Assembly: GCA_036172245.1 (NCBI GenBank)
Contig: JAYWIR010000043.1
Span: 1,054,001-1,118,000 of the forward strand
Direction: 5' to 3'
DNA: 64,000 nt
Source: Raillietiella orientalis
Lineage: Eukaryota
Shown: in pieces, positions 341 through 63,310 of the stretch
Layout of the letters: each line of letters opens with the position of its first letter
How positions within the stretch are numbered: position 1 is the first letter of the stretch
Notes under the pieces: generated by a model
What the model saw: the letters and a program-made list of their open reading frames with translations, nothing else
What the model was told of the DNA's origin: nothing
The model's database searches: none
Made by a program: the position numbers and the translations under genes

Positions 341-351
341 TTGCCGATCCT

Positions 352-7884: not shown

Positions 7885-7945
7885 GCTCGTGACGTCAGCC
7901 GGAAATCAGGATTCCCAGCTCGGAGGGGGAATTCCGGAAGCTTCC
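7885..7945. promoter_or_regulatory. Putative CpG-rich promoter with CRE and ETS-like sites
   Basis: TGACGTCA at 7890-7897 is immediately followed by CCGGAAAT, with TTCCGGAAG at about 7932. The cluster lies about 0.9 kb upstream of the candidate ATG at 7038. Confidence 0.35.
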
Positions 7946-10509: not shown

Positions 10510-11672
10510 GAGTGGCCAAGCTGACCAGGATGAACAACTGGATCTTCTGCCGGCCCGCGAACGGTAGCGCCTGGTTGCAGGAAACCGTTCGCACGTGGAC
10601 CAGGAACAAGGGAGCGAGCCTGAGGATGCGGCAGCGACTGGTGCACTCCTACAACAACTGCTCGCTGCAGGACGTCATCATGCAGCCCAACACGCGTGCG
10701 TGGGCTCGAAGAACTTCCCTAGCCGCGACAATGCCCTCTCTCAGGGAGCACCTGGGCAGTAGTCAGCCAAATGGGTGGTCCGATGTAAGATAAGTCTTCG
10801 GACTAAGGAGCTAGGTAGTTGGACTGCGGACTAGCTAACAGACGCTGCGACCCCAATTGCCCCACCGAAGGAACTGTGGTGCTGGGGTGAGCTGCTGGGA
10901 ATCCCGGAGGAAGTCCTCGAGTGTCCCCCAGCGCTGAAGAACAGCCAGACCCTCCCGTTCAAGTGTCAGGAGTCGGCACCCCTGCTGTTGCACTGGAGCC
11001 TCCCGTGCGACGCCCGCCGCTCTCACTGGACCCGAGGGGTTGTGGGCCCAAACTGCTGCAGGTGCGGGGCACGAGAATCGGAGCTTCCACACCTGCTCGT
11101 AGACTGCGTTGCCCTCCGGCCCCCATGGTTGCGTTATGCAACGGCTCTTGGCCCACCGACGGACAATCCCAGAGACGTTTTAAGAGCCTCTTTGTGAGCG
11201 ACGGCCCTTTGACTGCTGCATCCCTAGTAGCTCTTTGCTGCTGCCTACGCGGGATTGTGGCAGCCTGGAATTACGCGAGAGGAGGATGGAGCGAGAGGGA
11301 CGCCGTCTTCTTTGCCCTGCGCTTCCTGCGGACGGGAGGCAGCTAGATGGCCCCACCTGGGGCATGCACAGATGGAACTTGCCGGCATCCTGGAAAGAAT
11401 GCAGAGGGCGCCCTCCAGCGAACAGGAGCGCCATCCCTTCCCGTGCCCCCCTGAGTATTTTTTTTTTTTCTATTATTGATTTTAATTTTATTTTCATGTT
11501 TGATTTGTTTGCCCCCTCCCTCTCCCTCCGCCGCCGAGGAAAACCTCGCCGGCCGGCGTGCCGGTTACTCGGCAGATCCCGAGCATTTTCGGACAATATA
11601 GGGCCGACGGCCCTACACCTGAATGTTAATAATGTTTTATAATAAACCTTCCGGCGTGACTGGTTGATGAAC
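10510..11672 (+). mobile_element. 5'-truncated decayed L1/Tx1-like element: ORF2 C-terminus with CCHC finger, 3'UTR and terminus
   Basis: LHWSLP...NCCRCGARESELPHLLVDC (zf-RVT-type CX2C..H..C). AWLQETVRTWTRNKGASL matches AWRQETVQAWAKRNGTSL at about 56700 (minus). T-rich UTR, hairpin at 11533-11573, AATAAA at 11641 plus terminal motif. Confidence 0.8.
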
Positions 11673-13914: not shown

Positions 13915-14510
13915 CATCTTGGCTGCGTCAGATGCGGCGAAAGAGTCCCTCCCTCACCTGCTCGTGGATTGTGTCGCCCTCCGCCACATGTGGGAAGACT
14001 TCGCTGCGTCCCTGCGGATCTCCGAGAGCAATTCCAGAGACGTTGTAAATCGCCTCTTCCTGCGCGACGCCCTCATGGCGGCCGCATCCCTTGTAGCAAT
14101 TTGCTGACTACGCGGGATCGTGGCTGCATGGAGCTACTCCAGAGGAGGCCAGATCGACAAGATCCCATGTATTTGCGTTCCCCTTCCTGAGGGCAGCGTC
14201 AAGATGGTCCCATCTGGGAATCTTGAAATAGGAACTTGCCGGCTCCTTACAAGGATGCAGAGGACCACACCCTCCAGCACACAGTAATCCCTTCCCGAAC
14301 CCCTTACTTTGTTTGTATTCTCTCCTTTTATTTTTCTTTTTGTTTGTCTCCCCTTCCCCTGTGCTGCCGAGGCGAACTTTGCCGGTCTTGCGCGCCGGTT
14401 CTCGGCAGGTTCCTTGCGAATATCCGTGGAATGTGGCAGGATCACGCATCCTGCCACTTCCCTGTATGTTCATTTTTTGAATAAACGCACCGACGTGACT
14501 GGGTGTCAAC
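13915..14510 (+). mobile_element. Decayed 3' fragment of the same element
   Basis: CVRCGE/ESLPHLLVDCVALRHMWEDFAASL (frameshifted CCHC finger), FLRAASRWSHLG C-terminus, hairpin at 14364-14408, AATAAA at 14480 plus terminal motif. Confidence 0.8.
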
Positions 14511-14578
14511 CATCTTGACTGCCTACTGTCCTTTCCATTTCCGCCTTCTCTTGAGGATGTGCTCTCACGAGCGTTGCT

Positions 14579-23154: not shown

Positions 23155-23190
<36 letters not shown>

Positions 23191-25131: not shown

Positions 25132-26875
25132 TCAGAGGTGGACTTCGAAGGTTCGCACGGAGTTGCATGCAAATGGGTTGTTCGACGTCAAACTCGCATT
25201 GAACGGATTCGTGGAAAGAGAGGAGGCGCCGAAGGACTGCGACCGCGTCTGTAAGGGGATGTGGTGGTGGTTTCTTTGCTGCCGCTGCGGCAGAGACTGA
25301 ACGGAGCTCGCCAGCCACAGCTCCGCCCTCGACGGAACGGAAGAAGACGGCGCGGCAGACGGAGACGGAGGCCTTTCCCGGGACGCGCAGAGTTGCTGCT
25401 TCGCAGCATCCGCAGGCAGGCTGAACTCGTCTTTCGACGACAGAAGGGCGAGGCTGTGCGTCACCTGCTGCGCCAACTCGCTGAGGGCTTCGCCTTCCGC
25501 GGTGGAACGGTACTCTTCCTCCGACAGGTTCGCCGCGTCCCCGTTGATCTTGTGCCTGTCGCTGATGGCCTCGTCCAGGCTGTGGGACCGTCCCCGCTCG
25601 CCCAGGCGGAGCGACAACTGGCGCTTGAAGGGAGACTGATCGCTGAGAGTGGGGAAACCACGAAACGAGAGCTGACGCTGCAGCATGGATGGAGTGGCGT
25701 GGGGCCGTTCGATGGCATAGGGGTTGTTCACGGATCGGACCGGCGGAGTTTCTGAGGAGGAGAAAGACATTCGTCCTCGGTGCTCCATTCCCTCCCTCCC
25801 TCCCTCTCTCTCGTTTCTACCTGTGGGTCTGCACTCTTGTGGATCTGTCTTGCGTTCAGCGAGCGGGGCAGCTTTGAAACTTCCAAATCGACTGAACGTG
25901 GCTGTGGATAGATCGAAGGTGGCTGAAACTCCGGCTTCTTTGTCTCTCTTTTGTTTGCGCTCCAGGCAAACGGCAAACGCGCATCCGACCGCATGACTCA
26001 ACCTTTCTCCCTGTAGCAGAGGAAGGGGGGGGGGAGGGGGGAAAGAAAGAAAGAAAACGAAAGAAAGCGAGGAAGGAAGGAAGGAAGGAAAAAAAAAAAA
26101 GAAAAGAAATTCCATTCAAGGTAGCTCACGGAATCTCTAGTCGCAAGGAAGCCATGGCACATCCACCTTCGCGTTGCTCCATCACGGCAGATGTACGAGA
26201 ATCCACGTTCGTGGTAACGATCCGGTGCACAGAAGGACACTTTTTCGATGGTCTGATCGACTATCAATCCCTGCATCAGAGGAGAGAGAAAGTTCACTTT
26301 CCATTTCGAACGAAATACAACTTTGGTTTCGTCGTCAACTACTCGAAGTTCATCTCCGGAAACGTACAGCATCCCCTTTGTTTTTCGGCGGCGGCTGTTC
26401 TACAAATCATCATCTCGGTGTACATGAATGGAATCAAGATGCACCGAACCTTCAGGAGTTTCAAGGCCTCTTCGCAAACATTCATCCCTCGTGACTCAAA
26501 CACCTCAATGCAACCCAGGTACTGCGATTTTCCGGGAAAGGGAACGAAACGGTACAGCGCTCGCCATGCCCGGGAAGCTTACTTTCACGTGGAAGCTGCA
26601 GATCCCGCTCCTCACGGTTTGCTCGTCCTCCTGCCACTGGTGAGGTTTGGAACATTCCGGCAAATACTCCTTTCGGCGACGGAAGCTTTCCCTTAGACTT
26701 CGTTTCAGGCGGTCCATATTTGTGCTTTGGTGATGCTGAAACGATGGAGGCAACATCACTGTTAGGCAAGGAGCGAAGTGGGATTTCTTTCTGAAGGGAT
26801 CCACTGAGGGAAAAATACCTTTGAGCGAGAGACAACGGAATCGAGAGGTTCCGGGCGAGATTCACTTGTTCCCAT
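25132..26875 (-). CDS. numb: Protein numb (PTB-domain endocytic adaptor, about 436 aa)
   Basis: Exons 26875-26819, 26735-26583, 26521-26450, 26399-26322, 26270-26130, 26010-25821, 25751-25132; introns 83, 61, 50, 51, 119 and 69 nt; total 1311 nt in frame. [27 protein letters not shown] domain ([45 protein letters not shown]), NumbF region ([21 protein letters not shown]), two NPF motifs, C-terminal TFEVHL. The first exon is less certain; a core ATG lies at 26717. Confidence 0.95.

Positions 26876-30691: not shown

Positions 30692-30720
<29 letters not shown>
30692..30720. repeat. Poly(A) tract
   Basis: 29 consecutive A. Confidence 0.9.
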
Positions 30721-36680: not shown

Positions 36681-39600
36681 CACCCCGAGAGAGAGCACGG
36701 GGCCGGGATGGAGCGGGAAACCGGGGCAAGCCCAGCGATTCCGACCGTGCGACGAGTCGGCTCTGTACGACAGGGCGATCCCTGCAGGGACGGAGGCTGC
36801 GGACTCGACGGAAAAACACGGAAGCAAATCAGCGTCGATGAAGGTACTGCTCGCGCTGTTACGACGGGCAAAGGACTGACAATTTGGAAACGCTGAAGAC
36901 CACCGACCCCAACTTCACTTTTGAGGGGTTCCAACGAAAAATCCAGTAACATCGGCACGCAAACTGGACATCCGACTCTTCCCTTTGAGATCAATGCTAC
37001 ATGCATGGGGCAGTAGGTACTCATTTTTTTTCTGTCATTAACTTACAAGCCTTATGGATTTCGGACCTGCAGGGGAAGCGACGTTTGTTTCCCCCTTCCC
37101 CCCCCCCACATGCGAAGGGCCCAATCGAACAGCTTTAAATACGAATTGTACACTTCCTGTTGCTGCATGGCAAAGCGTACTTCAGCCATGGCGCTCCTGG
37201 ATGGATCGGATGTTTTGCCACGAAAAGCACATATGGCGACCGCCGCAAGAACTTGCAAGCCGAACAGCTGACGAGTCGTGGAAGTCTCCTCAAAGGCTTT
37301 GCTCATCGACACCGCACCGACGATTTCCTCCCGGCGGACAGCACCACCAGCTCACGGGAATCATTCCTCCACGTGGAGAGAGGCGCTTCCTGCTTGCCAC
37401 TTTCACGACAACGACACGACCAGTAACCGACACACTTTTATTCAAAGGGGGGAGACACCCCCCCACCCCCCACCCGTACGAAACGAATAACCAACGTGGA
37501 ACATGCAAATCGCACTTTGGAGTGGAGCGGACTTGAAGAGTGCGGCGTCCTGGCGGAACATTTTCCACTCAAGTTGGACATATTCTACAAGGAGGAAGAC
37601 CGAGGAAGGCACACATCCATTCACCCCTCATCCGCGCTGCTCTTCGCCAGCGCCCTGGAAGCTCCGTCGTCGAAGACGCAGGTGATGGTGAGCGCTCGGC
37701 TCCCACGCGCGGCGGCGGCAACCTTTCGACGCAGCGCAGCCTCCGAATCCCCTCGTGGCGATGTACCGCTTCCACGTTCCTGCAAACTCCAAGGTGTCTA
37801 ACGCGGAGTCTTCCAGTCTCGATCCACCGCCCACGGTGCTCACTCGTACAGCAGAGAAGGGTTCGGAGAAGAACATCAGAAGCGCCGTCCTCCGACGTAC
37901 GCTGTTGAGGAACTCGGAGCTTTCGGGCTGAAACGAGCGCACTGTGCACGGAGTACCGTACAAGTTATGTATATTGAATTCCCAGTCATGAAACAGCCGA
38001 CGAGCGGAGAGGGACTGCTACATTGCTTTTACATGAATGAAAACAGCACACTACCACTACAGCTTGAATGTGTGCAACAACTTGTGTAGTATGGGGTATA
38101 TGGGGATAACTCGAACGCCGTAGTGATGAGCCACGGTGGTCTGCTTACATCCGGAGGCGTTCCAAATATGAAGGGGGGGGGGGTCTCAAGTGAGCATACG
38201 TGTGAGCTCTCGCAGGTTTTCGACTACTACAGCTGCTGCGGCAGATCCATCATTACCTCTGCGTTTCTCCTTTACCAAAATTCGAACGTCACCCACCTTC
38301 AGCGAGTTCAGGAAGGAGCTCTCAGGAGAAAAATGCAACACAGCCCCTCCATTACAAAGGGAAAGACCCGAGTCTTTCCCTTTGCTCCTGTAGGAAAAAC
38401 ATCTTGGCAGCAGTTGAGAAAAAAACATTCAGGTGGGGGTAGAGGGGGGGGGGGGGAGAGAAAAAGAGGAAGAAGAAGAAACTTAAATGATACGATAACG
38501 GAAGGCAGATCGGTTCCACTACTGTTCGTCGCGCTGCTTCTCTCATTTCCACCCCAAGGGTGGAATCGAAGCACCTTTTTGCCGAACAACACGGTGCTTC
38601 GATTCTTCGCTGTAATTCTCAAGCAATCGTCATTAAATTCACGAAAACAAAAGGATGAATAAAGGATGAATCACTTTTCTTAGAAATACTGCTGTGCAAG
38701 AAACCTTGCTTCTTGAAAAAAGTGCAAATTACGGACGTGATTTTTTTTTTTTTAGAAAAAAGAAAAACAAAATAAAAGAAAGAGTGGGAACGCGCACATG
38801 GGTTTCAGCATGAGCGGCGCAAACTGACCAATTTCGAGAGTTTTTTGCGCCGCCGCCGCCTTTAAGAGAAGACCAACCCATTCGATATTATCCGTAAACA
38901 CACTCTCACCACCCGAGGATCTCAGGAACAGAGCAAACATTGGTGAGAAGATGAGAACAATTATCAATTTGAAGAAGAGGAAGAAATCTCAAAAGGGTCC
39001 GAACTTTGGGGGGGTCAACCTTCTGTTTTCAGGAAGATCGCCGACTTTGTGCTGGAAAAAAAAAAAAAAAAAAAAAAAAAGACCGCGATGACCCTCGGTA
39101 CCCACCCTGTTGTCCGGAGGAATCGTTTCCACGCACACTCTTCCATGCCCAGCAGCGGCTGCAGTTTACAACCGGATGTGCGCTTCCTGCCGCTTGCAAA
39201 TGGGCACCGTGCAACGGCAAGGCGACGGTTGCTGCTGCATGCAGGGGTCGGATTTTCGAAAAGACACGTGAAAACGGTCGAAGTTCTTGCCGAAGGGAAA
39301 CGGCAAAGACAGACGGACGCGCGAGCCTGGGACTTGGCCTCCGGGAAAGCACCTCGCAGGAAACAGTAAGGGGTGCCACAACTTTCGTAAAGGGACGGAA
39401 CTTTCTCGTTCGTCCACCGAATCCATCCGATTCGGTGGTTTTTCAAACCGCTGATTAAATAGATCTCGTCTTCGCCGGATACTGATGGACCGGATCACGG
39501 AAAACGTGTGGTTCACTGATCGTTCGTTCTGAGGAAAAGTTTCTTCACCTTCTGTGGAGTGCGATTTCTAAAGCAATTTACCGACGAAGCCCCGGGAAGT

Positions 39601-42751: not shown

Positions 42752-45700
42752 TCAATCTAAGTGGTCTTGGAAAATTAATTTTACGTATCCAGGAGCTGCT
42801 TCCAAGGGAACAGCACAGAATGGACATGTAGCATGAAAACCATTTGTACCATGGGGTATGGGCGTACCATCCCAATACCTAACACCAAATCACTGGCAAC
42901 ACAACTACTTATTTAAGACTTACTTGACTGTAGCCTCTGATGTTATGTGTCCACAAGGATGGAAACAGTGTGTAGGAGGACCATCATCTACCCAGAAAGC
43001 AGCTTCTGCTCCAAAGCAAAGCTTAACAATAGGTCCTACTTTAAAACATATAGGACACATATGATTTTCATTATCTTTTGTATGTCCCCAATCATGTAAA
43101 CCCTGGACGTGTCCACAATTCAGATACACATATGGCTGCTTTTCAGAAGACAATAGTGAGGAAGTCTGTGCTCGTGGAATGACTAAGGTATTCAGACCCA
43201 CAGGACACTGAGGACGTCCAGCATTAATCTGATCTATCATGCTTTCCAACTGTTCATGTGTCTACCAAAGACCTACAACTGCTGCACATACATGTGTTGT
43301 CCCTCACCATAGATTTTTCTAATCCTTCAGTGGAACGCCATAACAGTGTTGCTCCACATAAATCAATTAAAGTTCCATCTTGCAAAACGTTGGTATCAGT
43401 TTCACACTAAGACCATCAAAACGATCGATCAATCAACAATTTCTGCCATACCTTATTGCCACACTTCTGCAGAGACCGTGATTCTCTTAACGAAAAGATC
43501 TCACCACATACTGAAACTTCCTTCCAAATTCGATATGGTTCTTTTAAATTATTACCAACAAAAGGGCCATTAGGGTGACTGATCAATACACCATTAGTAG
43601 TTAATCCATCCATTGTTTTATCATTATTAAACCATTTAGTAGCCTTTTCCTGTTAATAAATTCATATAGAGGAGCACACGCTAATGATTTGCCTACCCCT
43701 AGAAAAATGTTGAGAGAGGAATCAAATCCTGCTGCATATATACGACACATTTTGGGATTGCTGCGTTCACAAAAAATGCGACAAGCAAATCGAGAAATTG
43801 TACTTTGCGTGGAAAGTGGGGTTAATTTATTCCGTTGGTTTCCTGGTACAATGTCTATAACCACAAAATCAATGGGCCCTTCAGATGAGCGACCAAGCTG
43901 GAACATATCAGTCTCTGGATCTGGGGTGTACTCAACAACAACAGCTGATGTACGATTCAGTGTATAAGATATAGAGTGCTGGTTAGCATCTAACACTGCC
44001 TGGGAACACTGTGGCTTTGCTACCAGGTAACCTCTGCTGCGACGAACTCCATTAGCTTTAGCACGCCGATATAAAACAAATCGGCTACGTCGCCGTCCTT
44101 TTTCTCCTTCTTCGAGAAAGCCATTGTGCCTGAACAATTGATAATGAGAGCTTAGAATTTCTAAATGAATCAAATGTGAAGAAATGAAAATAAATCAGAG
44201 ATTAAAAAATACTTTCGAAAAATCATGAAAAATGAATAGCATGGTTATTTTAATCAATCACTACCTCAAATTCTAACCAACTTATAAAGAAAAATTTTCC
44301 CAGGATTATCATTTAGCATAATGGATTGTGGTTTTGAAGAAATGAAGCAAATGAAATAACAATATTTTCCAGCATCTTACTTTAAAATGGCTTTAATAAG
44401 CACAGATTGCCATTTGAAAACATAGGTATCATGAATCATAAATATGATTACATTCATGCACTTGGTCTTTTTTAATGAAAATTCGTTGAATGTTCTATGA
44501 AAGACAGGACATCAACAAATGCATTACCATCTGAATCATTCATTATTGCTTTTTTGGTTCAATATAACTGATGTATTCACTTTAGAATACTCAATTAGTT
44601 AAAATGAAAATAGCATTACAATACGAACCATATACTTACTAACAAAGTCACATGATTTTTCATGGAGGAAAATACTGTTTATTCCCCAAATGTTGATCTA
44701 TTGGACCTAAACAAGTTGACACACACAAAATTTCCAATTTCTCTTTTTGTAACTGGATAAATTAACAATTTCACCTGATTTGCTAATGTAGAAACATCAC
44801 ACTCTAAGATAATGGCCAAAATTGCTTAGTTGTTAATAAGATTCAAGAAAATTACACTAATCATAAAAAGATTTTCCTCCTATGATTGCGAACTAATGTT
44901 CCAGATCAAAATGAGAAAATGAAAATTTAGAGAATAAAGACTCCATTCATACAAAAACAAATTAAAAAAATGATTCATAAAGGAAACTAGGTAAATTAGT
45001 TTCAGCTCTTTTTAAGTCAGAATGTTTTAAAGAAAGTCCAATCTTCAATGATAAAAGAATGATCCAAATTAAAAATTAAGATACATTGAAGATAAAAAAA
45101 AAAAAAAAAAAAAGTTTAATATCAAGAAGCTTATCTTTAATACCAATTTCAGCTTTTGTATATTTGTTCCTACTGTTAGTTGAATTTTCATTGTTACTTT
45201 TAACTGAATATTGAATGACTCCTTGCAATTCATTTTCCTATTAATTCTTTCATTATTCATCTAGACCCTACTGAAGTATCCATTTGCAAATTACATTTTG
45301 GTTTATGCAGAATCTTCACTGAAAAATATTCGTGGATACTCCGAAGCCCTTGAGAGTTCCATTTATCTCTTTAAAGCCAATGCACATTATCCTGACTTCA
45401 TGAATTCCATTCTTCTAAAATACATATTTGCATAGAATGCTAAGTAGACACTAAACTGAAAAAGCAGGAGAAGGGGAGCAAGATGATACAATTGCTATGA
45501 ACTGGAAAAACTTTTCAAACAGAACTAAACCACAATAACTGGAATCTCATGAAACTGTGATGACTATGATGCATCATTTCCCTCTATCTAAACTGATTTT
45601 ATTACACTTATCTTTTCATCTAATATCCATGCAGTCAATTATATCCACTTTGATTATCGTCTTAACTACTTTTTGTCAAGTGAAGCTCTACAAACCTTCA

Positions 45701-49549: not shown

Positions 49550-50130
49550 CAGGTATGATTACCAGGTTTCCTTATAATGTGCCATAAGCTACTCTCGAAA
49601 CGTTAGGGCCTCCTCCTAGCGTAGACCCACGCTTGCGGTTTCCCTGCATCAGGAAACCCAGATCGGAAAGTCGTGAACTTTCCATCTGTCTCCAGCATCC
49701 TGTCACGGGGAACGGACTGTGACCTTTGCTCATTCAAAGGTCGACTATGTGAAAGGTTGTTCATGCAAAGTGGCTGCCGTTGCCAGAGTGTCGATATGTG
49801 AGTTTGAATATACTTTGTTTGCTTCTTACGTTATGGCTTTGAAGGCAATCGCGCCCGTTGTGTGTGAAAATTCCAAAATTAAATGGGCCATCTGCATCCC
49901 AACTTGGAAAAGTGGAACCTTGCCTAGGATTTCTTACATAGAAAAACATTGGCTATCTCTCTCCGAAAAAGCAGGGATGGGAACATGAAATGAAAATTCG
50001 ACCTAGACTCCTGATGTGTGAAAGTAGATGAAGCGTAGAGCGTATAGTCACAAAGGAGATTTCAGGCCAAGCCATCTGAATTTTCCGATTCGAGCCATTC
50101 TCCTACGAAGGTGGAGACCTTGTTTCAGAC
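49550..50130 (+). mobile_element. Possible very decayed APE-endonuclease remnant
   Basis: LAVSLHQETQ (compare LQETH) and FAHSK (compare VFFAHAH at about 54600); many stops. Confidence 0.25.
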
Positions 50131-50136
50131 TTCGGA

Positions 50137-50760
50137 GTTTACACCCGGTCACGCCTGGGCGTTTATTGTGAAATCATAATCACAAATAAACAGCCAAGGT
50201 AGGAATACATATAGAAAAAGTTTTATTCCTTTGTAATGCGATTACAAATCCTACTATTCCAGTACAATTTTCGGAGCGTTTCTTCTCGGAAACAGATTGA
50301 GGAGGGGGGGGGGGGAATGCAAAGCAAAAAATAAATCAAATAAATGAATCCAAAAGAGAGGATAATGTTTTTTAAAAGATTGCGTGCGGGAGGGAAGGGA
50401 ATGGATCACAGCACCCTCCTTGGAGTCCTCAGCGTGCTGTCCAGGACGCAGGCAACTTTTTCTTTTAGCCTAAGAGGTGTGGTCATCTCGTCGTCATCCT
50501 CAGGAAGGTCTCATCAAGGGGATGGCGTCCCAGTTGGTTTGACCCCCTGCGGCAAGGCAGCTTCCCGCGGCGTGGCAAGTGAAATCGCGCCACTCGTGAA
50601 GAGGCCGTCTCACCACCACGTCTTTCGGGTTGTCCGTTGGTGGTTGTAGGGTCGTAGCGAGACGTCCCTGTACACTCCGGAGGGCAACCCACTCATGATT
50701 CCGTTTCATCGCACCTGACACAGTTCGGGGTCACACACTTTCCTGGTCCAGTGGTGTCAG
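50137..50760 (-). mobile_element. Decayed 3' fragment of the L1/Tx1-like family
   Basis: LQPPTDNPKDVV matches LGPPTDNPRDVL at about 11150. T-rich UTR on minus; terminal AATAAA-cgcccaggcgtgaccgggtgtaaac at 50167-50137. Confidence 0.75.
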
Positions 50761-51399
50761 CGCACTTCAACTGTGCTCGCGTATTTTTTGCGTGCTCGCT
50801 CGGTTTGAATGAAGCGCGGATTGGTTGCTATAGTGGTTTGGCGCTTGTCTGGTGAGAGGAGTAGTAGCGGTGTTGCAAAGGCAAAATGGCAGCGAACACT
50901 GCTAACAAGGGAAGGGGTGAAGAGAGAACTTCACCGCTACACGTGAAAACGGAGGCTGCAGCGTACAAAGAATCATGTCCTCGAAACGAGAGGGTATGGA
51001 ACTAGGTGAATGGCCTTGGTGACTCCAGGCAGCCACTTCGGTTATCAGGAGGAAGCCAGAACCTACATGCCCAAGGATACCGGCTATCCTCTTGTACAAG
51101 GTGGGCCATCTAGAACTTGCTTCGGTTACATGCTCTTTGCGAAAGGGCTTCGCAGTTTAGCATGGACAAAGGAAAACGGCAAGGTCTCTCGGTGATCAGC
51201 GAAAGGCGAGCTGTGGAGCTTCTCTTGCAAGGATGCAAGACTTGAGCAACCTTTGCAGAATACCTCTCATCAGCGTGAAGAACACCAGACTCCCCCTAGT
51301 CAAGAGTGGCCGTTCGTTGGTAGTCGACCTAGCCGGACTAAAACTACGGATGAATAAGAAGCCCTTCGTCAGTTTTCCAAATTCGCAATTCGAATTGGG

Positions 51400-51690: not shown

Positions 51691-51982
51691 AAACAGAATA
51701 GCCGAGTTCTTTCTGCCAAGGGAATGAAAAGAAGGAAACATGCACGAAAAAGCCAGAGAGAACCGACGAATAAAAGGGCGACCCGCAAACTCCGCGAATC
51801 GCGCTTGCGACACCTCGGCTAGGGAAAACACGCTACACGCCGAGGACGCGGGATGGCACTGGCTTATCAACAAGGGTAAAAAGGAAGGAAAGTCCGCGCA
51901 CCATTACGGCGAAGGACAGAGGAAGGAGCGGATAAGATCGTGTCAAGTAACGCTCAAGCGCGTTATCGCGATCGGTAAAGCA

Positions 51983-52514
51983 GTTTATCACCCGGCCACC
52001 CCTGGGCATTTATTCAAAATAATTTAGGAACGCGGTTTCCAACGCAAAGCAAAAAGTTCAAAAGGAGGGTCCGCCGACACTCAGGTCGGACACTCCAAAA
52101 GTCCGGAACAGATGGGAGAGGACAATAAATAAATTAATAAAGGGAGGGCGAGGTCAAGAGTCCATGACATCGGCTGTTTCTTCTAGAACCGTCGCAGAAT
52201 GCCGAGAGTTCCGTCTTGACTTGTTCATTCAGGTGAGGACACCTAGCAGCCGTCCTCATATAGGCGGTTGACATGCGGGCGACCTCCCTTCGCTGCTTGA
52301 GTCCATAAGAGATTGCGGGCCGTGACGATGGCGCGGATTCAGCATATCGTTGCGACCACGGCGCCAGCCTTGTCGCGACGAGGTCTTGGACTCCTGACGT
52401 TGCAGCGCATGCAAGTTCAGTTGAACTTTCGAAGACTGGCCTTCGTGGTAATCGTACTTCTCGGAAACCTAATGGGAATGCCCTGCGACTGGGCCACCCG
52501 GCCACTGGGTGCAC
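51983..52514 (-). mobile_element. Decayed 3' fragment of the family
   Basis: YMRTAARCPHLNEQVKTELSAF matches the family C-terminus (FLRLATRWPPLG..KDLVGIL). Terminal AATAAA motif at 52014-51983. Confidence 0.65.
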
Positions 52515-52879
52515 CCCTGCACGTTTGCTCTCCCGGCTGGCGGTCGGTGGCGAAGGACTCGCAACCCTGTTTGCGTGTCACCACCGCCGGCTCCCATCCA
52601 GCGGCTTCCCTCTCCGGTGTGTCTCTGCTCTGGTGAGAGTGAACACGTGGATTCGCTGCCGCCCTGCAAATACTCCGGCCTGGCAGTAGGAGAAAGTGAG
52701 GAAGTGGACCCTGCTCACCCAGGCCCCGTCGGAAGTTACCCGCTGCCGAGACTTTCAGAAGAACAGCGGAAGAACACTGGAGGCGGTGGGTAGTGAGCTG
52801 ATCATGTTAGCCTACCCAGCAGCCACCCTCTTCGGTGCAGCGGTGTCCTCCGCTACCGAGGTACATGGCACCTGCCTAC

Positions 52880-53743
52880 CGGCTAAGTGGGAGGTTTCCT
52901 GCCAGATCTCGGCCCGCAGGAAGCCTATCGGTGCTTGGACTACGCGGCAGCTGGCTGACGCGGCAACAGCAAGAACCGCCTCCAAAGGACTGGAACGTTG
53001 GGGAGAGCTCTTCTCCATTCGGCCTGAAGAGTTGGAATTATCCCCTTTGTTTATGGACTGTAAGCTGCTTTCCCTCAAGTGGCAGAAATAGGCGCTGCTG
53101 GTGCTGCACTGGGGTCTCCCGCGCAATGCGCGCCGGCACCACAGGACGAGGGGAAGCGCATCGCCGAACTGTGCCAGGTGTGGGGAGAAGAAGACTTTCT
53201 CCCACCTCATAGTGCACTGCATCGCTCTCGGGGACTTGTGGGAACGCTTCTCCGTGTCCCTTCCTCAACCCGCGGACGATCCCAGAGACCTTCGAGGCCC
53301 CTCTTCTCGCGGGACGCCATGACGCCCGCAGCCGCGATCTCAGCGCTATGTCGCGGCGAAGTGCGACGCCGTGGGAGGACGAAGCGACGGGGGGGCTGTC
53401 CCGCACGCCATCGCTTCCTGCAGGTAGCTTTGGGATGGCACCACCTGGAAAGGGAGAAGGACAAGCTCTCAGGCATCCTTCAAGTGATTCAGAGGGCTCA
53501 CCCACCACGAAATGTGATCCCTTCCCTTCCCCCAGCTGATCTTCTTGTCAGTTTCTACTTTTTGCTGTAGTTTGTTTCCTTTTTCTTCCTATTTTTTCTT
53601 CATCCCACCTCCCCTTCGTGGGCATGATGGACCTTGCCGGATCCCCCTCTTTTTCCTAATGTAATAATTCGAATCAGCGAGCCTTTTGTCCCCATCGACC
53701 CCTGCTAAAGGAATAAACGTCCCGGCTGACCCGGGTGTGGAAT
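52880..53743 (+). mobile_element. 5'-truncated decayed element: ORF2 C-terminus with CCHC finger and terminus
   Basis: IGAWTTRQLADAA..LSLKWQK..LHWGLPRNARRHH..NCARCGEKKTFSHLIVHC..RFLQVALGWHHL..LSGILQ; T-rich UTR; AATAAA at 53712 plus terminal motif. Confidence 0.8.
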
Positions 53744-54459
53744 CACCGCGCCAGCCGAGAGTCCGCCGTGCGCAAAGAATCGTTGCAGCAGGTCATAGGC
53801 GGTATCCTCCCGGTCCAGGAGCTCTAAGGTCAACATCCGCCACAGTTCGTGGAGGCCACCGCAGTCCAAAAAAAAGAAGAAACCCAAAACAGTTCGAGGA
53901 TCTAACTCCTCCGGAGACGAGGTGCCAGCGCTGACTGCACGGAAATTCCCAACGCAAAAACAGCAGCACCTCGTGATCGGTAAAGTCGCGAACGTTACCA
54001 ACGCGACGACGTCCAGTACCGCGGAAGGCGGCAACCAAACGTTGCCTTCTCCAAGGTCACCCATGAGCAGGAGGCAGAGGAAAAGCTGGCCGGAAAGGTC
54101 AAAGTGAAAAAGAGACATTGCCAAGACCCGCAGGAGAATCCCTTCGACAGATCTCCGACTCCGAGCTGGAGCCGGGAAACCCCGTCGAGGGACCCCACGG
54201 CACGAGGGTTCGTGAAACCGAAGCCTGGATGCGGCACGCATCCCCTCGGGAGGGGCAAGTGCCGACACCCATTAGCGGAACAACCTGCATGGAGAGGGCG
54301 CTAAGATCCCAGCCATCCAGGGTCCGTGCAGGGAGACGGAGGAACGAAACCCCCAGGTTCCTTTCTCCCTACGGGAGCTTTCCGCTTCAGTGCGAAGTGG
54401 GGAACCACGGCAAAGACTTCCCAGCGGCAATGCGGGGAGGCGCCTCCTCGCGCCGATCG

Positions 54460-55100: not shown

Positions 55101-55242
55101 CGCAGAGGCCGCCGAGCAGCTCCGCGGCTTCCTCGGTGGCTTTGCCATCACTAATCTGGAGGTCGGCAACCACTTTAAAGACTGGGGGCAGTCGCACGTT
55201 TGCGTCCGGTACCCAACACGTGTCCTTTCCCGAAACTTCAAG

Positions 55243-55490
55243 GATTTTTACCCGGTCACTCCGAAGCGCTGACTGTATGATAATTTACAGAAACTGTCGT
55301 GTTATTAAAGAAAAAAAAAAAACATGTCTTCCTTCTTAGTGGTTTCACAGCACCGCTACGATGGTGACGGAGACGCTTCTCCTCGTGAGCAGCTTGCCTG
55401 ACGAGGTAGGTCCGCACAGGAAAAGTGGGGGGGAAGGAGTAAACAAAAGGAAGAAAAACACACACACACAAAAAAAAAGCCAGTCTTAAC
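55243..55490 (-). mobile_element. Isolated 3'UTR/terminus of the family
   Basis: T-rich tract, UTR-like GC block and cgcttcggagtgaccgggtaaaaat terminal motif (55268-55243); AATAAA lost. Confidence 0.4.
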
Positions 55491-55849
55491 ATTTTTTTTT
55501 ACCGGAAGCCTATCAATATGCTTTTCGATGCTAAGGCTTATCGACTGAGCCTGTTATTGGACTTTTCGGTTGTCGAGATCTATCCGTTACACAAGGGTGA
55601 TCAAAGTGTGAGCGCTATCACACTTTAAAGAAATATTAAAATATTTGTTAATAATTTTAATAATTATATGCTATAATTTAATGTCATATAGCATATGATG
55701 TTATTGTCATATAATATATGACAATATTATTAAGGTATAGAGTTTTACAAATAGACACTTACGCCCTCGCCAAAACCGGACCGGTAGTGGCGACTCATCA
55801 GGCCCAGAAGAGTCGGCTGTTAATGAGTGGCGATAGATACAGTGTTAAA

Positions 55850-56900
55850 ACGTATTGCGAGAGGGGAGTAAGGAAGAGATTGCAGATGTCTTTCTGTAGT
55901 CCTCAGTGTCCTCTGGAGGATGCTGGCGACTTCCTCCTTTTTTTTTTTTTTCTTCTTTTTTTTGTTGGCAGAGGTGTGGTCATCTTGCCGCCTTCGTTTC
56001 GTGAAGGAGCAGACGATTGGTATGACCTCACTGTCCGACTGGCCTTTTTCGGCGCAGCTCCTCGCCGTCACAGTCCCATGAAGGCGGCACGGAGCTGCCA
56101 GGGAAGCCGCAGGCGACTTCGAGTCGCGCGTGAAGAGGCGCCCAAGAGCTCTCTGCCGTTGTCCATCGGGAGTGAGAGGGCGGCAGCGAAGCGTTCCCAG
56201 ACTCTCAGGAGGGAAATACGGTCCAGCAACGAGTGCGGGAAGGCTTCCCGTTTCCCGCACCCGGCACAGTCTGGGGCCGCACTCCCCTTCGTCAGGTGGT
56301 GGACTCGCGCGTTGCATGGCGTCGCCCAAGGCAACAACTGCAATGTCGAGTTCTGCCACTTCAGAGGAAGGGCGGAGCTGTCCACAAACGCTGGGGGTAC
56401 TTCTGCCTCTTCAGGAGGAATGTCCAGGAGTTCTACCGAGCGACAAATTCCTTTAGGGAGGGCGGTGTGGGTACATGCGTCAGCCAGTTGACGCGCCGTC
56501 CAGCATCCCAGCTGCTTCTTCTTTACCACGATCTCTCAGGACATTTCCCACCATGCAAGTGCATTGCTGTTTTCACTTTGTCACTGTTATGTTGAGCGTC
56601 GCTGCAAGTGGGGTGTTCTGTGCATAAAGGGTTTCCTTGGGCAGTCCATGATTTCCTGCAACGAGCAGCGACCGAAGTTCGAGAATCGCAGGTCTCGCTT
56701 TGGCTCCAAGCTCGTGCCATTTCTTTTCGCCCACGCCTGAACTGTTTCCTGTCTCCAGGCATCACAGTTGGAAATCCATCTGTTCTCTTGGGTCAAAGAA
56801 ATCATTTGTCGAAGTTGGCACCTGCATCGGGGCAATCTTCGGTGTCCATGCACGAGGAACGTACCGAGTCCCTCGGCTCCGGCCGCTCTCCAAGAGAGTA
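55850..56900 (-). mobile_element. Decayed ORF2 C-terminal half of the family
   Basis: AWRQETVQAW..CSLQEIM; LGCWTARQLADA..LPLKWQN..DCAGCGKREAFPHSLLD; EEVASILQR. Homologous to 10510-11400 and 52880-53500. Confidence 0.8.
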
Positions 56901-58309
56901 GCCAGCGCCGGGAACAAACGTCCTTCCTTACAGACGAGAACCTACTGCAGACGCCCCATGGTTCAAGCGACCTCAGCCATCCTCATCATGAGCGTCATAG
57001 TAAGGAGGCGGAAGCCCCTCCTAGGCAAGAGTGTGCCTACAAGGGAGATATTACAAGGACTGCTGATGAAAGAGATGGGGATTCGCAAACGTGGGAGGGT
57101 GCCAACCTGGACATTCAGGCACATTTTGTAAAAGCTGAAGATACAGTCTGACAAGTACAAAGCGATCCTACTACTTCCCCCTCCCCCACCTAAGGGAAGA
57201 CTCTCGGAAGTGAAAAGCTCGTAAGCCGAGAACCGGAATCCGCCCTCCCCCCCCACTAATGTGGACTTCAAGGAGAGTCTGTGGACGTTGTTCCGTGTCT
57301 TTCTTTGAATTTTGTCGTAACTATTTCGATTCGTCAATTCACCCAAACACTTGTCGGACTTCGGGAAAACTTCGTTGCCTCCCTGCGGTTTGGAAGAATC
57401 CACATGTCAGGTTTCCTCATGAACATATCGAGTGACCTGCTCGTGTCATTTGTTGACTGTTGCGGTAACTTCCGTGGACAAGTCGGGAATGTTCGTCGAG
57501 AGTGTAGAAGCGTTTGATATCAGATTCAGCTTGTTTCCATCTGCAGCTGCTTGCCATCTCTTCAACCACGTACAGTTGCCATTCGTATCGTGTCGCCACG
57601 GAGATGGAGCAAATTCGTTTGCAGGGGAAAGTAGCGGAAATGGAATCATGGGAAAATTCCCTCTGAAAGGAAAGTCCATGAAGCATCCGCCAGGCGAAGA
57701 AACAACGCGGTCTCGTATGATGTGGGTGAATGTCCTTCCTTCAAGGACGTCGCTTGTTCACCCACTTAATTTACGACAAACAAACAAAATCCGACGTTTC
57801 GACTGTGTGCATCCGTCGCCTACTTTGATCGACTGCAACTTTTCTCGGAAGAAAGTTCTACAAAGAACATCCCTGCCATGTTATTGATTGGGTAATTCAT
57901 CTGACCCCAGAAATATTCTAGAAGAGCCAAGAGTTTTATCGACGGTTTCTCGCCTGCGGGATGGATATCACTTGGAATTCTAACGCAGTTCAAAGCAAAG
58001 TCTTTTCCCATGTGTATATACACATGGTGGTTCATTTTGGTTTCCGAAGGAAAGGTCGCAATATGAGGTATGTTCGTACAGATGGCAAGTATCCTTTTTC
58101 TGAATAGCGCGAATTCTTTATTCGACTAACACGATGATCTGTACGGAGTTGTCACAGGGATTCATTCCTTGGTTCGCTAAGTACTCAAGAACCGTCGAGC
58201 GTCAGAGAGGCCTCGGCGATGCTGCCACATGGTGGCTTAGAAGACTCTTTAAACATCGTCACATCTCTACCCGAGGGTGCATGTAACTCAGAAGGAAACC
58301 CCGAAGTGA

Positions 58310-58560: not shown

Positions 58561-60510
58561 TTATTCTTCTGGAACGCGGAGTGGGTCTCAGTATCTTCAG
58601 ATGTATGCATGCATCTGAAGATACTGAGACCCACTCCGCACTGAATAAGCGGCTTTTGCTTCTAGAAATATTTGTGGAAGGGGAGGACGATTGTGGAAAA
58701 CTGACACAGCTAAGAACTACTGGTTCTTTGTGTATATTCACTGTCAAGAACTCGTTTGTTTCTTCGTGCTTCGTTCCTACGATGTCCAGCTGGCAAAAGA
58801 CCCTGCAGTGAACACACACAGATCCCTTCCATCTTGCATGAAGAAAAATTGCAGCATCAATGCAAACAATCAACATAACACAGCTCGAGGGGAAATTGAA
58901 GAGAAAACAAAAGAAAAAAACGACATTCCTTTCGAGATGCCAACGAAAGTTATGTTATGACGAGCTAACTGAAGGGAGCTTTTCCAGGAAATCAGAACTA
59001 ACTTTGTAAACAACCGTTCAGAAGGTGCACTCATAGGCTGTAAACGATGCTGAGTAATCCAGATTACTAAAATCTTTTATTTGCGCAATACCTTATTTAT
59101 TTTTCGAAGTAGTGCCGCTGCAGTTTTCTCCCTGTCAGTTCGGCGATGGATAAGCAGCATATGCTGATAACAGAACTTACGGCTTTTTCTTTTCGTTCTC
59201 CATCTCTGAGGTCAGGAGCTCCATGCTGGGTTATTTTGTGGAGGTGCGGACACAACTTTGGCTCCGATCAAGATAACAAAAAAAAAAAGATCGATCTTGG
59301 AAGCTTATGCAAGCGCTTGTGGCGAATGCTTCCGCATAGAAGACGACTTAGAGGAAGGTACATTTATTTAGAGACCCCGAATCAACAGAACATATGTTCC
59401 CAGGATTCATCGACCAAGTTCATCTTGAGGTTTGCAAAGTTTATAGGAAGTAAAAGCATGTCCTCCTGGATGCTTACCAGGAATGAGTCGGCATATTTGA
59501 TTTTAATTCACCAACAGAGCTAGCGAGATCGACTTGGAATCTGGAATACGAAACACTTACATATCCTTGGTTTCAAGAAAACATTTTAAAGTCCATAAAG
59601 GATGATGCAAAAATGTTGCTTAAGTCGGTTCTTGATCCATCATGCAGGTTTCATGAATTACGAAATGCAAAGCCAGAAATTCAATTTCCTTCGGAGGAAC
59701 TTGCAGGGAGACAGCTCCGAGAAGTGGCCGGAAACGATACAGATGGCAAACCGCGATGGAAGCTCTCTCCTCCGACCCTTGTTTTCTGTTTTTATCCTCC
59801 CTCTTACTCGGGCAAGCTCGGACTTTTGAGGAACGCTCTGTGGGGAACTGAGAGGTCCAGGATCCACCTCAAGGACTCGGCGGCTCCTCATAGGGATACC
59901 GGCATGTCAGACCGACGCCGGAGAGAATCGGGCTGCAAGTGCAGTTCCGAATGCCGGCGCTCTGTACCACGCTGTGGAAGACCCTGTCTTCTTCTTCAGT
60001 GGAACTGGGATGCTCCAGGGGAAGATGTGAAAGCACGAGCCTACTGCCAGTAGCGGTTCCAGCTTCTCCTCGGAGTCCGAGGAAATGATCCTCGGTTCCG
60101 AGGTCTCGGAGGCGTACAGCATGGCGGAGGACGGGAGCAGTTCCCCTTCTCAATCTGCCGTGCTACCGGCTGAACCCTCGCCGGACGGGGCGAGGAACGC
60201 GCTGCCATGTCCGCAGCAGCAATGGTGGACTGGCGTCCACTCGCCGCATCAGCGGGTCCTTTTGGGATGTCAACGGGCTACGCGACGACGACAGGAGGCG
60301 GATGGTTGCCTAAGTCCTGCGACCGTCCGATTCGGCACTCTGCAGGAGACCCACTGTGTCTCCGAATAGGGGGTTGCCGAACTCGAAGAACTGCAATTGC
60401 CACTCGTATGTGGGAAACTACACTGGCGGAGAGGCTCGGCACGCTCGTGCGGAGTAGCATTCCTTGTCCGGGGCAGGATGGCGGGGGCGGTGCGGAAAGT
60501 TGGTTTCGAC

Positions 60511-60900
60511 GTTGTTACCCGGTCACGCCGGGGCGTTTATTAGAAACAAACAATTGCAGTATAAGGCCCCACTGTGGCCAACACAACAAGGACCTGCCGG
60601 GTCGTCGGTGCGCAGACCGACTTGACTCCACGGCAGCGGGGTGGGATGAGGAAAAAACAAAAAGAAAAAGAAAAGAAAATTAAAAAAAAAAGAATAGTTC
60701 TCTGGAGGGGATCATTGTCCGCTGTCCGCTTGGTGGAGGTTTCATCCTTTGCAGGATGCCGACGAGGTCCTTCTGCCTGTTTCCCAGGGGGGGCCATCGG
60801 GTTGCTAATCGCAGGAAGCGGGCTGCATATTCCATGGCATCCCTGTCGTTTGCATCTTCTACTTCGTCGGATCCACTCCAGGCCGCCACAATGCCGCGGA
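60511..60900 (-). mobile_element. 3' end of the family, antisense to the neighbouring ORF2
   Basis: DRDAMEYAARFLRLATRWPPLGNRQKDLVGILQR, T-rich UTR, hairpin at 60594-60636, AATAAA-cgccccggcgtgaccgggt at 60541-60511. Confidence 0.75.
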
Positions 60901-60949
60901 TGCAGCTGAGACGAGGAAGGTCGAGTGAGCCAACTTGTGCTCAAGTAGT

Positions 60950-61433
60950 CCGAATCCATCGACCTCGTCCACGAACGTATACGCTCCCAGCGTTGGTGCA
61001 CGGTACGCCAAGAGAATCCAATTCCTCGGTGGCCTGCAGAGCCGATGGCTTGCTGACTCCGGCCCCAGGGTGGCGCATCTCGTTGCAGAGGAGTTCAACG
61101 TCCACCTTCTTCCAGAGGAAAGATCCCGCCTGCAGGAAAAGCAGCTGGTAATCGAAGTATGCGCACCTACTCGGGCGCAAAACCTGCTCGCTGGAGAACC
61201 TGGGATGCTGGAAGCACCGGACGACGCATTCCTCGACGAACACCTGCTCCCCCGAGTGGGTAGAGGACATCGTGTGCTGTCCGCGCTCTCCGACCATCCC
61301 AGAATAAAGTTTGAGCTTCTCCCTCCCGAGGGTCCTCCGATCAACGTTTGGAGGAAGCCGGCAGACTGGCTTAGCAATCCTCAGGCGGAGGAGCACCGCC
61401 AATACGTCCGCGGCTTTGTCATCTGTGAGCTCA
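60950..61433 (+). mobile_element. APE endonuclease domain of L1/Tx1-like ORF2 (decayed)
   Basis: NVYAP, AEEFN (GDFN position), SDH, then the W-R motif (INVWRKPADWL) that typically follows the endonuclease in L1/Tx1 ORF2. Confidence 0.75.
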
Positions 61434-61890
61434 CTTCTCACCAGGGTGCTCCGGAGCGTTTATTCTTTCGAACAAAACAAATCGAGAGTCTGTGGCTTGA
61501 CCAGTGGTCCAGCCACGCGCGAACAACCAATAGCGAGCCTGCCGGGTCACAGGTTACCAGACCGGTACGGTCCACCACGACAGCAGAGGAGGTAAGGACA
61601 AAACAATAAGAAGAAACAAAAATTAAAAATAAATAAAAATAACATCTTAGGGGCACGGGAAGGGATCACAGTCTGCTGGGGAGCCGTTACATCCTTTCTA
61701 GGATGCCGGCAAGTTCTTCTTTGATTTGTGTGTCCAGGCGGGCCCATCCTGTCGTCATCCTCATGAATTCGTCGGCGCATTGGACGGCACCCTTATAGCG
61801 GGGTCCTCCCGTTGCCTTTCTCCATACGGTGACGATCCCGCGTAGGCAGCACAGGCGATGTACTTCGCATAGTCAGGCGCTATTACTCCT
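61434..61890 (-). mobile_element. 3' end of the family lying antisense between endonuclease and RT
   Basis: gaacttgccggcatcc also occurs at about 11376. T-rich UTR, hairpin at 61539-61586, AATAAA-cgctccggagcaccctggtg at 61464-61434. Confidence 0.7.
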
Positions 61891-61899
61891 TGCTGTATG

Positions 61900-63310
61900 C
61901 GGAGGCGCCAACCGAACACAGTTCCTCCGAGCTGCTTCTGCCAGAGGACTGATGCCCCTGCTGTAGACGAGGAGGAGCGCGCATGTCTCGACGAGCCCTT
62001 CATGGCGGAGGAAATCTCTTCAGCCATCGCGGGGCTCAAGAGACGGGAGGTGCTGGGCGATGATGGCCTGCCCGTGGAGTTCTTTCAGTGCGTCGCGGCG
62101 GAGCTCATCTCCCTGGTGCTCAGCCTCTCGTCGCTGAGGCGCGAGATGGACAATGTCCTTGCCTCGTTTCGCTCAGCGAAGGTGCGTCTCCAGACTTGTG
62201 CCACCTCAACTGGCATCCGATCACCTTGGTGAATTCGGACATGAAGTTCTCGAAGCTGTGGGTCGCGTGCCTAGGGAGGATCACGGAGACCTTGGTAAGT
62301 CCTGAGAAAACGTACGTCGTTCGCAGGATGTCCATGGATGAGAACCTCATTTTCGCGCGCACCTGGCTTCAGCTGCAGAGACGCATTGCGCAGGACGGTC
62401 AAGCAGCGGAGACAGCCACGTAAGACTGCAGGTGTAGGCACGGATGGAGGGAGAAGACTCCTTGGCGGATCGGTCAGCATGAAGCTTCCGTCTGCATCAA
62501 TCAAGAGCTTCTACTGGAGCTCTTGGAACTCCTCGGTCTTCCGTCACACCTGCTCTCCTACTTGCGCTCCTGCTGGCACCATACGTTATGCTGCATCTCT
62601 TTCAGTGTCCGCTACGTGTACGGCATACCGGGCGGGGCGTAAATCAGAAAGACAGCTAGCTCTTAAACCCTGTGCTCCTCAGCATCTTCTTCGAGTTGAT
62701 GCTTAAGGAATACAGACTGGCTCTCTCCAACCTGCCGAGCCCCTGTCCAGGTATGCCGACCGTGACCGCCTACGCGGGCAACCTGCTTTCTCTGTTGTCC
62801 AGTTCCATCCCAGCGGCTAGACTCGTAGACTTCTTCGAGATGCTCCTTCGGGGAGTGGGCATGAGCATCAACAGGTCGAAGTCCACAATTGTCCCAGTTG
62901 GCTCCACGTGGAAGTGGCAGTCCGACTGATCCTCCTGGAGATCCCCATGTTCAGGTATAAGTACTTCGGTATACAGTTGGACGACTTCTGCTCAGCAGAA
63001 GCGTGGTCGGACTGCGTTCAAAAGTTTTTTCACCCAGTTCCTCAGGCATTTAGCACCGGTTCTGAAAAGAAGGAATAGCCAATGCCAAAGACCCCATCCC
63101 TACCCTCCTTTTCGTCTGTTTTTCTATTTTTTTTTTATCCATTTATGGTTCCCTCCATTCCGTTCCGGACTTCCAGAGTGCCCGACCTGCGTATCGGGGA
63201 GACTTCCCCTTGAACTTCTTTTGTCTTTGTTTGGGAACTGAGTTCCCAGATAGTTTGTTCGGGCATTTTTGTGTGTGAATAAAGGCTCCGGCGTAACTGG
63301 GTGATAAATC
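61900..63310 (+). mobile_element. Decayed L1/Tx1-like reverse transcriptase domain joined (internal deletion) to the family 3' end
   Basis: LDEPFMAEEISSAIAGLK..GDDGLPVEFF, NWHPITLVNSDMK, AYAGN (YADD decayed), GMSINRSKS; frameshifts. Then T-rich UTR and AATAAA at 63278 plus terminal motif. Confidence 0.85.

Follow-up and report, generated by a model that had tools for sequence, protein, structure and literature searches.

Ten diverged copies of an L1-like LINE family end in a conserved 3′ block without a long A tail

The window, by which we mean the whole 64-kb stretch of DNA that forms the DNA evidence base of this analysis, is metazoan DNA with host-gene exons in an AT-rich centre and LINE repeats in GC-richer flanks (GC 0.31-0.53 in the host-gene centre and up to 0.57-0.66 in the LINE-rich flanks). 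A Pfam search of its 198 open reading frames of at least 110 aa returned only three host genes and one weak zf-RVT match. The host genes, identified by Pfam, are:

18548-20472, minus strand: exons of MCM8
25135-26399, minus strand: exons of Numb
42923-44194, minus strand: exons of Pellino

These host exons are unusually large (463 and 190 aa in MCM8, PID plus NumbF in Numb, FHA plus RING in Pellino). The first ~10 kb of the window (1-10400, GC 0.61-0.66) have long open frames in all six frames and no significant Pfam match; the sole match there, A9CJY8-like_N (E = 0.003), is at chance level and below its cut-off, and the only features accounted for are a LINE copy (copy K) and a fragment of the same family at 2-82. 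At 58571-58644 lies a near-perfect inverted repeat of about 70 nt that is matched on both strands by several generic miRNA-precursor models, all well under their gathering scores (best 42 bits vs 84).

The feature of interest is the 3′ end of one LINE copy, copy F, which comprises the following elements:

60511-60541, minus strand: focal terminal motif, which reads AATAAACGCCCCGGCGTGACCGGGTAACAAC
60541-60536, minus strand: AATAAA hexamer of the motif
60532-60518, minus strand: potential 5-bp hairpin CCCGG-CGTGA-CCGGG, followed by TAACAAC
60590-60625, minus strand: upstream hairpin HP1 (GTCGG-loop-CCGAC) with the conserved box CGGCAGGTCC, supported by a covariation test

The 16-mer core of the motif, CCGGCGTGACCGGGTG, has seven matches in the window at up to three mismatches, against a mean of 0.31 in 100 dinucleotide shuffles, none of which reached seven. 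All seven are sites listed in an earlier note on this DNA, which had proposed that about ten diverged copies end in AATAAA plus a conserved motif; the remaining listed sites (53712 and 2271 on the plus strand and 61464 on the minus strand) are more degenerate and still alignable. We built a DNA profile of the last ~1.3 kb of the family from seven copies, with copies I, J and K left out of training, and searched the window with nhmmer. Each of the ten motif sites lies at the 3′ end of a profile-matching stretch, with no orphans, and the three untrained copies were recovered (E = 7e-58, 5e-24 and 1e-13). The proposal therefore holds for every site: all ten are the 3′ ends of 5′-truncated copies of one non-LTR retrotransposon family, and motif occurrences unlinked to ORF2, which would have spoken against it, were not seen in the window. 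Copy starts vary over profile positions 1 to 967, whereas the 3′ end is common to all at about 1296-1309. The copies are mutually too diverged for repeat finding at the DNA level, self-BLAST having given only four weak pairs. They are listed here together with their target-site duplications (TSDs); P0002 is a reverse transcriptase (RT) described below.

2-82, minus strand: eleventh family fragment, which runs off the window edge with its 3′ end outside (nhmmer E = 5e-6)
1508-2302, plus strand: copy K, a degenerate tail with its motif (2271-2302) half lost; nhmmer match 1508-2289, E = 1e-13, untrained copy
10481-11683, plus strand: copy A (element 10493-11671, motif 11641-11671), with a 12-bp TSD, CCAAAGAA[A/G]GGG, at 10481-10492 and 11672-11683; supported by the TSD, P0002 homology and a CCHC remnant at 10835-11194
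13914-14522, plus strand: copy B (element 13927-14509, motif 14480-14509), with a 13-bp TSD, CCATCTTG[G/A]CTGC, at 13914-13926 and 14510-14522; supported by the TSD and DNA similarity to copy A
50130-50767, minus strand: copy I (tail 50138-50767, motif 50136-50167); nhmmer match 50767-50138, E = 7e-58, untrained copy; candidate 12-bp TSD, not validated, at 51159-51148 and 50141-50130
51966-52356, minus strand: 3′ part of copy J (element 51981-52356, motif 51983-52014); nhmmer match 52372-51983 to profile positions 862-1309, E = 5e-24, untrained copy
52357-53756, plus strand: copy C, inserted within copy J (element 52370-53743, motif 53712-53743), with a 13-bp TSD, CAC[G/C]GCGCCAGCC, at 52357-52369 and 53744-53756; supported by the TSD and P0002 homology
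53757-53985, minus strand: 5′ part of copy J (element 53970-53757); nhmmer match 53971-53840 to profile positions 631-782, E = 6e-4, starting at the TSD edge
53985-53971 and 51980-51966, minus strand: 5′ and 3′ copies of the 15-bp TSD of copy J, CTTTACCGATC[G/A]CGA
55235-57274, minus strand: copy E, with homology support over 55246-56982 and a degenerate motif at 55243-55274 in which AGTCAG replaces AATAAA; candidate 10-bp TSD TCCTTGAAGT, not validated, at 57274-57265 and 55244-55235
60512-60948, minus strand: copy F, a 5′-truncated tail (ORF2 end and 3′UTR); nhmmer E = 1e-90 (training copy), protein similarity to copy G
61435-61870, minus strand: copy G, a 5′-truncated tail with its motif at 61433-61464; profile match, protein similarity to copy F
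61848-63308, plus strand: copy H, the only copy to keep an RT (61854-63024), with its motif at 63278-63309; tblastn match with P0002, nhmmer match 62979-63308

All copies are 5′-truncated and the copies carry stops and frameshifts; in copy H an internal deletion has also taken the C-terminal ~1 kb of ORF2. Copy J was considered as a SINE-like partner and rejected because the LINE profile matches its two halves in collinear order, the 5′ half having been missed by a simple pairwise alignment. An isolated match to P0002 aa 445-489 at 59778-59906 on the plus strand (E = 1e-4) has no 3′ end of its own and may be a further copy that was disrupted by copies F and G.

Within the terminal 650 profile positions, mean pairwise identity across 42 windows peaks in the last 30 nt (0.684, compared with 0.31-0.37 in the adjacent upstream UTR and 0.46-0.66 in the coding DNA of ORF2). 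The AATAAA hexamer is intact in eight of the ten copies and is conserved as well as the rest of the terminal block. CpG decay was rejected as the main source of differences between motifs, since CpG transitions make up only 5 of 40 differences. Motif scans of public metagenome, prokaryote-genome and viral contigs gave no match in any of the three, and a literature string search with the 12-mer GGCGTGACCGGG returned a single paper (on mouse ACSF3) that is unrelated by title and abstract.

The copies share the C-terminus of ORF2, in which a CCHC knuckle (C-x2-C-x7/8-H-x4-C) is followed by LRGIVAAW and ELAGILERM. The CCHC remnant of copy A matches zf-RVT with an E value of 0.006, below the Pfam cut-off, and a profile of distant L1-like ORF2s matches copies A, B, C and E at its positions 982-1052 (E = 3e-7 to 0.03) and copy H at 61936-62908. 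When a profile of the ORF2 C-terminal fragments from the window was compared with 1.84 billion representative proteins, only three matched, namely P0003 and P0004, which are zf-RVT fragments, and P0002, a 619-aa RT (RVT_1, E = 5e-24). A word-based protein search with a 120-aa CCHC fragment and a Pfam search of the decayed window frames (stops read as X, 1.8 kb) gave no matches. The RT of copy H (61854-63024, plus strand) matches P0002 aa 13-412 (tblastn, E = 6e-52) and the C-terminus of P0002 matches copies A, C and E, which ties the RT that the earlier note had placed at 61900-62930 to the same family as these C-termini.

The solved RT closest to P0002 is human L1 ORF2p (E = 7e-40), compared with an E value of 7e-17 for R2. 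The next relatives of P0002, from ticks, frogs, lizards, fish and plants, are only ~30% identical to it; its nearest full-length relatives combine Exo_endo_phos (PF03372), RVT_1 and zf-RVT, and one plant relative carries the automatic name 'Transposon TX1'. Loci that match P0002 reach at most 61% identity over short best segments, with 22-35% in seven of eight loci. Two LINE-type RTs, P0048 and L008, are filed under bacterial MAG names (Mycoplasmoidaceae and Rickettsia), most simply because host DNA was carried into symbiont bins.

In a quick maximum-likelihood search on 51 RT rows, P0002 fell inside a clade of 38 rows with SH-aLRT support of 98, which includes eight plant L1-type rows, and outside eight of nine rows with a Jockey/CR1-type endonuclease, the ninth (gar) lying inside the same clade. 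The branch leading to P0002 is long (1.31) and its place within the clade is not resolved. Pfam found no APE domain (Exo_endo_phos) in the window, where all copies are 5′-truncated and the best profile match has an i-E of 0.58, and no ORF1 was found there either. The family has a LINE-type RT, variable 5′ truncation with a common 3′ end and, in four of ten copies, TSDs of variable sequence, all of which are hallmarks of LINEs. It also has the post-RT CCHC knuckle of the L1 superfamily and an RT that groups with the L1 type; a poly(A) or A-rich tail, which is typical of the superfamily but not universal, is absent. The suggestion that the copies are L1/Tx1-type LINEs agrees with these results. 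As judged from sequence, we assign the family to the L1 superfamily (in the broad, L1/Tx1 sense), probably as a deep branch, with L1 proper and Tx1 left undivided in a tree that had no labelled clade references.

We searched for TSDs by comparing the 34 nt after each motif with the 6.5 kb upstream. Candidates were found for six of the ten copies (A, B, C, J, E and I) and none for copies F, G, H and K. At 400 random sites, 12-mers, 13-mers and 15-mers with one mismatch occurred by chance at rates of 21%, 9% and 1.25%, respectively, and exact 10-mers at 15%; taken alone, the candidates of copies E and I are thus at chance level. The TSDs of copies A, B, C and J (12, 13, 13 and 15 bp, with one mismatch each) were validated by their 5′ copies, which lie 2, 23, 13 and 0 nt from independently mapped starts of homology. 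For copy A, the 5′ TSD copy runs up to 10492 and homology to P0002 begins at 10494. For copy B, the corresponding positions are 13926 and, for DNA similarity to copy A, 13949, although one protein HSP (13892-14050) passes the proposed 5′ boundary by 35 nt. They are 52369 and 52382 (P0002 homology) in copy C, and in copy J the profile match starts at 53971, at the edge of the TSD at 53985-53971. Copy J is split by copy C, and its halves are collinear on the profile (631-782 and 862-1309), with the TSD of copy C explaining the join. Because the halves of copy J are collinear across the insertion, the TSD calls of copies C and J are both confirmed. Four of the ten copies therefore have TSDs of 12-15 bp at boundaries mapped by other means.

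The four validated TSDs are mutually unrelated (CCAAAGAAGGGG, CCATCTTGACTGC, CACCGCGCCAGCC and CTTTACCGATCGCGA). They start 4-8 nt past GGGTG, or 24-28 nt past AATAAA, and similarity among copies ends at the same distance past GGGTG with no A run after it, as the earlier note had claimed in stating that similarity stops after the motif without an A-tail. Tandem repeats are absent from the 3′ terminus at all ten ends. Several ends carry short A runs, from AA to AAAAA, and where AA, AAA or AAAA stands at the terminus it may be a very short A tail and not templated sequence. Five of the six TSD candidates start with C, beside the consensus end ...ATAAA(C). The flanks beyond the motif are unrelated between copies, the insertion sites are all different, one of them lying inside another LINE copy, and no matching half-site was found at the 5′ junctions. 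Since the TSDs adjoin the motif within 4-8 nt, these copies never had a long A tail, a microsatellite or a common target at this end.

The two members of a TSD pair are 92-100% identical and differ at 4 of 63 positions (a count that includes the unvalidated 10/10 pair of copy E), compared with 35-50% between copies. TSD pairs being far less diverged than copies, most of the divergence must have arisen while the lineages were active, and every one of them kept the terminus. This suggests that many sublineages retaining it existed side by side, although the estimate is biased towards well-kept TSDs. The copies were inserted by target-primed reverse transcription, they have no tail and their terminus has been under strong selection.

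In each copy the 3′UTR begins, ~130-200 nt before the end, with a pyrimidine-rich (T/C) tract of ~50 nt followed by a C-rich box; the tract, exemplified by 60652-60694 on the minus strand, is common to all subfamilies. The 5-bp stem that the earlier note had drawn in CCCGG-CGTGA-CCGGG can form, and the terminal hairpin block is conserved at the sequence level. The stem is paired in 41 of 50 cells (82%), compared with 83.6% in column shuffles, no pair has changed on both sides, and the covariation score is 0.182 vs 0.207 in shuffles. The G-U pairs that had been read as support for the stem come from single C-to-T changes and are therefore not evidence for a kept structure. A further suggestion, that the motif resembles a tRNA A-box, was not upheld, as neither a tRNA-like gene (ARAGORN) nor an Rfam match was found at the motif sites.

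The upstream hairpin HP1 lies ~95 nt from the end, with homologous positions in copies A, B, G, H, I, J and K. Its bases are paired in 34 of 40 cells, and three of its five pairs have substitutions in both partners (G-C to A-U and C-G to U-A, among others). Across these eight related rows its covariation score is 0.471, compared with 0.229 ± 0.063 in shuffles, 0 of 500 of which were as high, and with at most 0.229 in slid controls. Between HP1 and the hexamer many copies have an unrelated palindrome (the HP2 region), with folding z-scores below −2 in 3 of 10 copies (−2.3, −5.8 and −2.7). For the last 130 nt the folding z-scores are mixed (−3.1 to +1.6, below −2 in five of ten copies), and z-scores of hairpins in fixed windows are uninformative because hairpin positions shift between copies.

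The best explanation of these results, and one that we consider probable, is that the motif represents the true 3′ end of an L1-superfamily, APE-type LINE in a metazoan, the terminal block of which is recognised by ORF2p. The element RNA would have a 3′UTR of ~200 nt in which the pyrimidine-rich tract is followed by HP1 and the box CGGCAGGTCC and then by the variable second hairpin region, and it would end in AAUAAA-CGCY-CCGG-CGUGA-CCGG-GUG(A)UAAA(C). AAUAAA would direct Pol II 3′ processing to a cut ~25 nt downstream, which is where the DNA copies end; the fit of the copy ends to this cleavage distance suggests that the terminal block also sits at the RNA processing site. ORF2p might then recognise the terminal block by its sequence, and possibly also the small hairpin and HP1. 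Target-primed reverse transcription would begin at the last few nucleotides of the UTR and not within a poly(A) tail, and new copies would join a TSD of 10-15 bp with at most two to four terminal A's. In the 64-kb window we saw no non-autonomous element, SINE or otherwise, with the same tail. Put more generally, and more tentatively, a deeply branching animal lineage in the L1 superfamily may possess a sequence-specific ~30-nt module between poly(A) signal and cleavage site that, together with HP1, causes ORF2p to start at a fixed nucleotide and to ignore the poly(A).

Alternatively, the terminal block might be conserved as a polyadenylation or 3′-processing module, consisting of AAUAAA and a downstream hairpin that fixes cleavage, without being read by the RT, which would prime at the junction of UTR and poly(A) via microhomology with the target. 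We regard this as unlikely, although the conservation of AATAAA to the same degree as the rest of the block and the lack of covariation in the terminal hairpin would both be expected from such a module. The copies end 24-28 nt after AATAAA, which is within the canonical range of cleavage distances, and the C with which five of six TSD candidates start, beside ...ATAAA(C), hints at microhomology of 1-2 nt. Nevertheless, a processing module leaves unexplained why reverse transcription never starts in the poly(A). Known relaxed L1s copy their tail (PMC3472496), and both the covariation of HP1 and the conservation of hexamer-proximal sequence above that of coding DNA fit an RNA recognised by a protein better. 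Processing and recognition are, moreover, not mutually exclusive roles.

It is highly improbable that these L1-like elements had ordinary poly(A) tails and that decay or deletion has since removed the tails from the old copies seen here. The stops, frameshifts and 5′ truncations of the copies and the short A runs at several ends are compatible with such decay, but in the four validated copies and two candidates the TSD starts so close to GGGTG that there is no room for a tail, and where TSDs are still 92-100% identical a tail would remain visible. This genome does retain long A runs: perfect A25-A29 runs at 23160-23188, 30692-30720 and 39056-39080, with unrelated sequences upstream, represent homopolymer microsatellites or else the tails of other retroposed sequences.

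That a site-specific, Tx1-like element has the motif as its fixed target, or that the motif derives from a tRNA/SINE promoter (A-box), has almost no likelihood, because, even though many Tx1-clade families are target-specific (PMC4494074) and no other DNA block is strongly conserved, the flanks of the motif are unrelated, the six TSD candidates all differ, one insertion lies inside another LINE copy, the 5′ junctions have no matching half-site, and ARAGORN and Rfam found no tRNA or RNA family at the motif sites. The earlier note had left a recognised terminus and a fixed target side by side; the former, a specifically recognised terminus, is the best reading, and the latter fails on TSDs that differ and adjoin the motif.

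L1-type elements are the textbook example of relaxed, poly(A)-dependent template choice, which gives rise to processed pseudogenes and to the mobilisation of Alu-like SINEs. A conserved end without a tail is unusual but not unprecedented among L1-like elements, and our best and likely reading is that this animal L1-like LINE has a 3′ end of the stringent type, with precedents in plant and algal L1s and in Dictyostelium TRE5-A. Mammalian L1s are similar to the present family in having 5′-truncated copies, TSDs of similar length and an AATAAA near the end, but they differ in their relaxed, poly(A)-dependent recognition and long A tails (PMC3472496).

On the basis of plant and algal L1s, Ohshima (2012, PMC3472496) argued that stringent recognition was the original state of the L1 clade. 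In the stringent-type monocot 1a lineage (LINE1-1_ZM), divergence is 0.144 in the last ~45 nt and 0.570 elsewhere (PMC3472496). Like the family described here, in which identity is 0.68 at the end vs 0.31-0.66 elsewhere and HP1 covaries, this lineage has a conserved end and a 3′UTR hairpin with compensatory changes; unlike it, the lineage is from plants and shares its tail with the SINEs ZmSINE2/3, and the two motif sequences are unrelated. According to the same paper, almost all surveyed flowering-plant L1s end in (A)n. Its table 1 lists 15 green-algal L1-clade families, of which five have no 3′ repeat and eight have other repeats, with L1-1_CR rated as stringent. These algal LINEs thus also include families that do not end in poly(A), but L1-1_CR itself ends in poly(A), and the main text describes no terminus of AATAAA plus a hairpin.

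Slime-mould elements are reported to belong to the L1 clade (PMC3747384). In TRE5-A of Dictyostelium, secondary structure of the 3′UTR in the last ~87 nt (the C-module) is indispensable for retrotransposition and recognition by ORF2p has been proposed (PMC3159450). TRE5-A differs from our family in that it targets tRNA genes, has been tested experimentally and has a structure and sequence unrelated to the motif here. Members of the Tx1 clade (Tx1, Keno, Kibi, Koshi and Tx1-Mar) are, like the present family, animal elements of the L1 superfamily, and their architecture is APE, RT and CCHC; many are target-specific, and the SINEs they mobilise have poly(A) tails (PMC4494074). In our family, by contrast, the insertion sites differ, the six TSD candidates and the flanks are unrelated and there is no tail. 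In the L2/CR1-type stringent LINEs (eel UnaL2 and zebrafish ZfL2-1 and ZfL2-2), ORF2p recognises a 3′ stem-loop without poly(A) (PMC4176376, PMC3747384). These elements belong to another clade and terminate in short tandem repeats, for instance (TGTAA)n, none of which follows the motif here, whereas the present family clusters with L1-type RTs and has a CCHC of the zf-RVT type.

Our literature searches, the scope of which excluded Repbase/Dfam entries and subscription journals, found no published animal LINE of the L1 clade with a conserved end that lacks a tail. A lineage of this kind in the animal L1 superfamily would be an independent data point for the argument that stringency is ancestral. 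If the proposed recognition is correct, stringent recognition would occur in L1-type elements of animals as well as in those of plants, algae and amoebae. This would favour a scenario in which the L1 clade was stringent to begin with and relaxation took place separately in mammals and in flowering plants. At ~30 nt, the terminal block is a compact candidate recognition element for ORF2p, and the motif (search string AATAAACGCYCCGGCGTGACCGGGTG) is a good practical anchor for annotating the family.
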